Positions 55,309 to 56,648 of a DNA stretch of 64,000 nucleotides are shown here, piece after piece. The DNA is from a phage, in the sequence record PZ452582.1, one strand, 5' to 3'. Below the pieces are notes generated by a model that saw nothing but the letters and a program-made list of their open reading frames with translations, was not told where the DNA came from and searched no databases. Each line of letters begins with the position of its first letter. The first letter of the stretch is position 1. The translations under genes and the position numbers were made by a program.

Positions 55309-55869
55309 ATGATTAATAAAATTGTACATGAAATGGCTTTAAACGGAGATTCATATAAAATATCTGCCATAGTTGAAAATTTTATACTTAATAAAGTAAA
55401 AGAATATTTCACTGATTGTTCAGTTAGTTATCAAGAAAAAATGGTTTTAACCGATGATACTGAAAAATCAAATAATTTATTTTGTTCGAATTTTATAACT
55501 AAGAAGCGTACTAGAAGATTTGATATTGTTATTTCTCGCAATGGTAAAAAGCATATAATTGAAATTAAACATCAAGTTGGTGGAGGTACAGCTATTGATT
55601 CGGTTGGAATATATTTAGAAGATAAAGAGAAATTAAAAGAATACACAAAAACTGAAAACCCTGTGTCATTGATGATATTAGATTTTTTGCCATGCGGATA
55701 TTATCCACGTAATAAATGGACAAAAAGAGAATCATTTACTGATAATCCAACCATCCAAGCAAGGTTTAATGAATATGCTAAATCACAAAACGTGTTAGTA
55801 TTACTATCAAATACATATGATGAAGAATTATATAATTCGTTTTTTGCTGCAATAAATGAGAGAATATAA
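55309..55869 (+). CDS. hypothetical protein (186 aa), possible PD-(D/E)xK nuclease fold
   Basis: [21 protein letters not shown] fits D-x(13)-E-x-K; SD gagga; stop overlaps dam start (ATAATG). Confidence 0.5.
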
Positions 55870-56648
55870 TGCTAGGAGCTATCGCGTATACAGGTAATAA
55901 ACAGTCATTATTACCTGAACTTAAGCCTCATTTTCCAAAATATGACAGATTCGTGGATTTATTTTGTGGAGGTTTATCAGTGTCTTTGAACGTCAATGGT
56001 CCTGTATTGGCCAATGATATTCAAGAACCAATTATTGAAATGTATAAGCGTCTTATTAATGTATCATGGGATGACGTATTAAAAGTAATAAAGCAATATA
56101 AACTATCAAAAACATCAAAAGAAGAGTTTTTGAAATTACGTGAAGATTATAATAAAACTAGAGATCCTCTTTTACTTTATGTTCTTCATTTTCACGGGTT
56201 TAGTAATATGATTCGTATAAACGATAAAGGAAATTTTACTACTCCGTTTGGAAAAAGAACTATAAACAAAAATAGTGAAAAACGCTTTAATCACTTTAAA
56301 CAAAATTGTGATAAAATAATCTTTAGTTCATTGCATTTTAAAGATGTCAAAATTCTAGATGGCGATTTTGTATATGTGGACCCTCCATATCTTATAACAG
56401 TTGCTGATTATAATAAATTTTGGTCAGAAGAAGAAGAAAAAGACCTTTTAAATCTTTTAGATTCTTTAAATGACAGAGGAATAAAATTTGGACTGTCGAA
56501 TGTTTTAGAGCATCACGGAAAGGAAAACACTCTTCTTAAAGAATGGTCTAAAAAATATAATGTTAAGCATCTTAATAAAAAATACGTCTTTAACATATAT
56601 CATTCCAAAGAAAAGAATGGAACTGATGAAGTATATATTTTTAATTAA
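55869..56648 (+). CDS. dam: DNA adenine methyltransferase Dam (GATC, N6-A)
   Basis: 259 aa, near-identical to recalled T4 Dam; DPPY catalytic motif. Confidence 0.95.

Follow-up and report, generated by a model that had tools for sequence, protein, structure and literature searches.

What does the gene that runs into dam do in T-even phages, and does it give a purpose to the methyltransferase behind it? To our knowledge, the Dam protein of T2 and T4 is the textbook solitary phage methyltransferase, and what the phage gains from it has never been clear. We addressed the question in a window of 64,000 nt of the phage record PZ452582.1 (positions refer to the whole window), which comes from a Tequatrovirus close to T2 and ACG-C40 and is 99% identical to many records. 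Here, as in most natural carriers of dam, a conserved restriction-endonuclease-like gene precedes and overlaps the Dam gene. We call this open reading frame (ORF) of 186 amino acids (aa) ORF186. It is a very small member of an uncharacterised restriction-enzyme-like family, and very probably a PD-(D/E)xK nuclease functionally tied to Dam. We favour the reading that ORF186 and Dam form a type II restriction-modification (R-M)-like module borne by T2-like and other T4-like phages, and put its chances at about even. The elements on which the argument turns are the following:

55221-56688: indel cassette (promoter, ORF186 and dam), delimited by comparing the locus with RB32-type phages
55255-55283, plus strand: sigma-70/T4-early-type promoter-like site, (G)TTTACT-17-TATTAT with an upstream TG
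55297-55301, plus strand: Shine-Dalgarno sequence GAGGA, 7 nt before the ORF186 start
55309-55869, plus strand: ORF186, PD-(D/E)xK restriction-endonuclease-like, phrog_8706 (ORF scan, structure model and alignment)
55375-55377, plus strand: codon of E23, an invariant residue on the helix preceding the catalytic strands
55522-55569, plus strand: catalytic core D72-x12-E85-I-K87 on beta2/beta3, invariant in nine homologues (codons of D72, 55522-55524; E85, 55561-55563; K87, 55567-55569)
55570-55602, plus strand: H88-Q89 and G93-T94-A95-I96-D97-S98, all invariant, where the helix after the catalytic strand begins
55867-55871, plus strand: TAATG stop/start overlap of ORF186 and dam
55869-56648, plus strand: dam, encoding a D12-class GATC N6-adenine methyltransferase (T2/T4 Dam)

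The initial annotation, made from the letters of the window, had proposed a real gene with its own early promoter, paired with a GATC adenine methylase. These proposals held up. Given the base composition of the window, 186 open codons would arise by chance with a probability of about 2e-7, and the frame found by the ORF scan is preceded by the GAGGA. The downstream ORF matches the Pfam profile PF02086 with an E-value of 6.5e-51. The promoter was recovered by our scan, although the scan itself showed no enrichment across the window (11 sites vs 14.7 expected from shuffled sequence). The site is supported by its conservation in diverged loci: in L004, L009, L010 and L013, the homologous ORF has GTTTAC/TTTACA as the -35 element and a -10 element resembling TATAAT 40-60 nt on its 5' side, and two of these loci lie elsewhere in the genome. 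All five loci with enough upstream sequence have a promoter-like element of their own, and the JB75 record annotates a promoter at this site. The two genes had also been described as translationally fused. They do overlap, since the TAA of ORF186 (55867-55869) gives its last A to the ATG of dam (55869-55871), i.e., ATATAATGC, a 1-nt overlap; the proteins are not fused. The two overlapping frames are probably translationally coupled.

We modelled ORF186 with AlphaFold2 from an alignment of eight family sequences. The model is confident (predicted local distance difference test, pLDDT, 82.4; predicted template modelling score, pTM, 0.80). It comprises helix 15-33, strands 38-47, 67-77 and 80-88, helix 95-113, strand 119-124, helix 147-160, strand 163-167 and helix 172-185. 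The modelled chain has the alpha-beta-beta-beta-alpha-beta core of PD-(D/E)xK enzymes, with the acidic residue of beta2 (D72) on strand 67-77 and the (D/E)xK motif of beta3 (E85-I-K87) on strand 80-88. E23, D72, E85 and K87 are invariant in nine homologues, down to 32% identity, and so are H88, Q89, G93-T94-A95-I96-D97-S98 and D125. A D-x(n)-E-x-K signature and this fold had been proposed from a short motif, and both are borne out by the model and the homologues. The top Foldseek matches of the model in the PDB were almost all PD-(D/E)xK nucleases, with the strongest likeness to MunI.

Profile comparison gave a further lead to MunI. Using hhalign, the ORF186 family aligned with a 20-sequence MunI-family alignment (probability 53%, pairwise E 1.4e-4, 74 columns) over the N-terminal half only, i.e., residues 20-91 with MunI 21-104, pairing E23/D72/E85/K87/Q89/G91 with MunI E24/D83/E98/K100/Q102/G104. 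ORF186 had no Pfam match to PF11407, the MunI family. By eye, its segment IEIKHQ...GTAIDS resembles AEAKHQ...GNAIER of EcoRI and GEIKRQ...GNAHER of MunI; the sequences of these two enzymes were checked against the PDB and are exact, except for D83A in the deposited 1d02 chain. The H88-Q89/G93-S98 segment is a candidate DNA-recognition element, which we treat as a mere lead because hhalign of the family against the single EcoRI sequence was not significant.

Several strong structural matches, i.e., Can2, Bax1, McrC and Mus81, are not restriction enzymes. PD-(D/E)xK proteins have diverse roles, and ORF186 might have a specificity unrelated to GATC: it could be a structure-specific nuclease, a repair or recombination enzyme, or a general degrader of cytosine-containing DNA, whose co-transcription with dam would have a regulatory or historical cause. 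The likeness to the GATC enzyme DpnII, described below, is sub-threshold, which also speaks for such a nuclease. We consider this explanation unlikely.

The family is small. About 12 sequences in total came from a profile search over 1.84 billion representatives and two word-indexed searches over 5.8 billion clustered proteins, all of them on T4-like phage contigs. We found no bacterial copy and no further lineages in IMG/VR, JGI metagenomes and GTDB genomes. Searches with ORF186 found no relative among PDB sequences by phmmer or profile, only noise in NCBIfam, and no match among plasmids by tblastn, even at E 10; a low-stringency tblastn of the family member P0009 against phages returned family members only. 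A GTDB contig, L016 (JBOFGC010000160.1), is binned as bacterial, in the metagenome-assembled genome "Bacilli bacterium". It carries homologues of the T4-like primase, dCTPase and Dam in T4 order, and is probably a mis-binned T4-like phage contig.

The linkage of ORF186 to dam is strict. A D12-class methylase lies directly downstream of the ORF in all ten loci for which downstream sequence is available, and the junctions of the natural homologues are a 1-nt overlap, an exact abutment, or overlaps of 7, 20 or 35 nt. The pair occupies three genome positions. In Tequatrovirus, L004 and L009 it lies between dam.1 and gene 56; the Klebsiella Jiaodavirus phages (L010) have it between denB and ndd, and in L013 it is found upstream of rIIA. 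This is the adjacency and co-inheritance of type II R-M genes, found in ten of ten loci, in three contexts and with overlapping frames. The two proteins also diverge from those of the window in parallel, with identities of 63, 56, 42, 33 and 32% for the ORF and 71, 72, 61, 55 and 52% for Dam. In L010 (Klebsiella phage Shinkou), the rIIA- and rIIB-like ORFs at 467-2027 are annotated as short fragments (301 and 206 aa), pointing to rII genes that are truncated or split, or else to an annotation error. The nearest plasmid relatives of the phage Dam (about 35-43% identity, L017-L022) are methylases of AlwI- or FokI-type IIS R-M systems from Firmicutes and a Psychrobacter plasmid, not enterobacterial Dam; the neighbours of the closest ones are AlwI- or FokI-type enzymes.

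Could ORF186 be an inactive relic, i.e., a partner of Dam that binds DNA or has a regulatory role, or the decaying remnant of an ancestral restriction gene? It is far shorter than DpnII, and the T4 and laboratory T2 copies have lesions. Yet, all four catalytic residues are invariant, about 95% of the carriers keep an intact 186-codon frame, and the fully active MunI has only 202 aa. Because synonymous rates (dS) were saturated, we used only nonsynonymous rates (dN) relative to the primase. The dN of the ORF (0.32-0.37) equals that of the essential primase on the same contigs (0.32-0.36), which indicates purifying selection on ORF186 and not decay. We regard an inactive ORF186 as highly improbable.

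The pair behaves as a mobile unit. In the window the gene order is primase gene 61, "dam.1" on the minus strand, ORF186, dam and gene 56, and the comparison of cassette states involves the following further elements:

53984-55012: primase gene 61
55009-55209, minus strand: "dam.1", 66 aa, the left flank outside the cassette (ORF scan; phrog_2024; name from the T4T record)
55175-55194, plus strand: terminator-like hairpin and T-run, just 3' of primase gene 61 and inside "dam.1" (consensus scan only)
55234-55241, plus strand: left copy of the 8-bp direct repeat ATCACAAA bounding the T4-type deletion
55782-55789, plus strand: right copy of the same 8-bp repeat

Phage records with the dam.1 flank numbered 507, of which 184 had dam and 148 the ORF (149 records covered at least 80% of the ORF and dam stretch). 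Accordingly, three states occur in Tequatrovirus: about 148 of the 507 records carry both genes, about 36 carry dam only (the T4 type) and about 320 carry neither; "dam.1" is conserved in all three. We detected no record among the 507 with the ORF and without dam. That the nuclease is lost while the methylase stays, and never the other way round, is the pattern predicted for an R-M pair. The cassette is about 1.45 kb long. In place of 55221-56688, RB32-type phages join dam.1 to gene 56 by about 40 bp of unrelated intergenic sequence. Judging from these loci, the pair moves and is lost as a unit.

T4 itself lacks most of ORF186. Its deletion spans 548 bp between the two ATCACAAA copies and takes the promoter and the first ~158 codons, leaving the last ~29 codons of ORF186 before dam. 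This accounts for the absence of a T4 counterpart in the initial annotation, and locus comparison identifies the solitary dam of T4 as a deletion product. In contrast, T2 carries the gene, both in the 1988 record M22342 and in complete genomes. In laboratory T2, one nucleotide is missing from a T-run of the gene; the last residues are altered, the product has 181 aa, and 13 nt separate the ORF from dam. The T4 remnant (L015, T4T ~1075-1110) shares this T-run variant (L011 2030-2060; window 55846-55869), which suggests that the T4 deletion arose on a T2-like allele.

An optional gene at a variable site also recalls homing. ORF186 might be a free-standing homing-type endonuclease that, in mixed infections, cuts cassette-less relatives at a specific site near the empty dam.1|56 locus or the other insertion loci. 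Repair of the break would bring in a copy of the cassette, with Dam as a passenger or as protector of the carrier's own site. The indel pattern and the mosaicism of the neighbouring segF/gene 56 region agree with it. In T-even phages, the homing enzymes known so far belong to the GIY-YIG or HNH types, whereas the fold of ORF186 is PD-(D/E)xK and the structure closest to it is that of an orthodox type IIP enzyme. Moreover, Dam as a mere passenger hardly explains strict co-inheritance at three unrelated insertion sites. Homing therefore seems quite unlikely.

The surroundings of the cassette showed other features. The minus-strand "dam.1", whose product is labelled "putative membrane protein" in the JB75 record, overlaps the primase stop codon by 4 nt, and the hairpin inside it would shield the cassette from upstream transcription. 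Gene 56 (dCTPase, 56709-57227) is strongly mosaic, with ~75% nucleotide identity between the window and RB32 vs ~96% in the flanks. The cassettes of L023 and L026 are 99% identical, yet their gp56 are 71% and 100% identical to that of the window. Between gene 56 and soc lie two small ORFs, phrog_5782 at 57227-57421 and phrog_5773 at 57418-57627, with head or virion labels. At this position T4 has the homing endonuclease segF, and JB75-type phages have nothing.

Under the favoured reading, a type II R-M-like module, the cassette would be transcribed early from its own promoter, and ORF186 would be a compact, catalytically competent endonuclease of the MunI/EcoRI structural class. It is predicted to recognise GATC, or a site containing it, and to be blocked by the N6-methylation made by Dam; the cut would probably leave a 4-nt 5' overhang, as with DpnII and MboI. 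The carrier genome, injected already methylated by its own Dam, would escape, and cleavage would fall on DNA in the infected cell whose GATC sites are unmethylated. Co-infecting T-even relatives without dam, a group that makes up roughly 60% of Tequatrovirus records, would be the likeliest victims; other under-methylated foreign DNA is an alternative. The "orphan" Dam of T4 would then be the modification half that survived the deletion of the nuclease gene. An R-M-like module had already been proposed in the initial annotation, and the fold, the intact and conserved active-site residues, the purifying selection, the linkage to dam and the cassette-like distribution all speak for it.

What links the endonuclease to GATC is solely a sub-threshold likeness to DpnII, a family of GATC enzymes. 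In Pfam, ORF186 of the window matches DpnII (PF04556) with 16.9 bits (E 0.004), P0002 with 17.7 bits and P0009 with 22.5 bits (E 8e-5), the gathering threshold being 23 bits. Other family members match generic PD-(D/E)xK families (PDDEXK_11, BanI, SfsA and NOV_C). The PADLOC REase_II model PDLC03548 matches ORF186 with E 8.5e-5. The GenBank record of phage Shinka names the gene "putative DpnII restriction endonuclease"; nearly all other sampled records have "hypothetical protein", and no function is assigned to PHROG 8706.

The opposite dependence on methylation was also considered. Functionally akin to DpnI or MutH, ORF186 might cut or nick GATC in its fully methylated or hemimethylated state, with Dam making or completing the target on cytosine-containing host DNA and hydroxymethylcytosine (hmC) shielding the phage. 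Such a nuclease would account for the obligate linkage to Dam, methylated GATC is plentiful in Dam+ hosts, and the Klebsiella phage pair sits between denB and ndd, both of which have host-DNA-directed functions. The sole family-level sequence lead is, however, to the methylation-sensitive DpnII. MutH and DpnI are missing from the top Foldseek matches of the model, and T2/T4 Dam, according to record annotation, also methylates the phage's own hmC DNA. We find this explanation very unlikely.

Several points weigh against an R-M-like module acting at GATC. Its nuclease activity and its GATC specificity are predictions. DpnII-family membership of ORF186 is not established, because neither score nor length is that of the family: only three of the eight members tested match PF04556 at all, the best of them below the gathering threshold, and the matches map residues ~11-113 to positions ~143-235 only of the 278 of the profile. 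With its 186 aa, against ~280 for a full-length enzyme, ORF186 lacks the N-terminal ~130 residues of DpnII. Both genes are dispensable, being absent from about 63% of Tequatroviruses, and the laboratory T2 copy of ORF186 has its frameshift at the 3' end. Enterobacterial hosts are Dam+ and their DNA would be protected, which makes the host chromosome an unlikely target. Of all 4-bp palindromes, GATC is by far the most depleted one across the window (68 sites vs 192 expected, an observed/expected ratio, O/E, of 0.35; the remaining ones have O/E of 0.66-1.25). We rejected this depletion as evidence for the cassette, since it is as strong in the cassette-less RB32 (18 vs 16 sites in the homologous 16.6 kb). 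It is equally strong in other T4-like contigs, i.e., lineage-wide. Being a property of the lineage, it is evidence neither for nor against the cassette. Finally, 94% of the tested type II enzymes fail on glucosyl-hmC T-even DNA (PMC7653180). If T-even competitors are the target, ORF186 would thus need an unusual tolerance of hmC, given that T-even DNA resists most type II enzymes.

A bolder version of the R-M-like module meets this last point. ORF186 may have evolved in hmC phages to cut glucosyl-hmC DNA at unmethylated GATC, as an inter-phage weapon against dam-less T-evens. We hold this to be rather unlikely. If true, carriers would destroy or out-recombine co-infecting dam-less relatives, and the long-missing purpose of T-even Dam would be at hand, together with a possible contributor to the lineage-wide depletion of GATC. 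More generally, if the nuclease is active and specific for GATC, T-even phages own a working type II R-M system. This would be unusual for phages with hypermodified DNA and Dam+ hosts, and would point to phage-versus-phage restriction.

A full-text literature search found no published description of the ORF186 gene. Miner and Hattman (1988) reportedly saw 536 bp inserted 5' of T2 dam, for which no homology was detectable. A type II R-M pair borne by a virus is of a kind already known. New are the protein family, its compact form and its home in hmC phages of Dam+ hosts, as well as the implication that the T4 "orphan" Dam is a remnant.

How does the cassette compare with known systems? The DpnII/MboI systems (a PF04556 nuclease and a D12-class methylase, acting at GATC and blocked by N6-methyladenine) have the same layout of adjoining nuclease and D12-class GATC methylase, and their profile shows a weak, in-register likeness to ORF186 over the catalytic core. 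They differ in that their nucleases have ~280-290 aa, a size and a family threshold that ORF186 does not reach. In addition, the cassette has the order nuclease then methylase, a 1-nt overlap and no second methylase, and it resides in a lytic hmC phage instead of a bacterium, with a GATC specificity that is so far a prediction. ORF186 differs from the MunI/EcoRI class in having 10-21 fewer residues in the loop that leads from the catalytic strand to the putative recognition helix. It has T and S where GNAxER has its recognition residues N and R, and its partner methylase is Dam (GATC) and not an AATT-site enzyme. Seg and Mob homing endonucleases are likewise optional nuclease genes between conserved genes, patchy among close relatives, but ORF186 is neither GIY-YIG nor HNH and always comes with a methylase. 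The chlorovirus pair R.CviAI/M.CviAI combines a GATC endonuclease of a lytic virus with its cognate adenine methylase, and methylation protects the viral genome. Its target is the GATC-unmethylated DNA of the host, a eukaryotic alga. The hosts of the cassette carriers differ in being Dam+, and so, in all likelihood, does the target. As for the "orphan" Dam of T4, the Dam of the window is the T2/T4 Dam and matches the PADLOC orphan-methyltransferase model end to end (E 1.6e-183). Yet, it is not solitary in 148 of the 184 Tequatrovirus records that carry dam.
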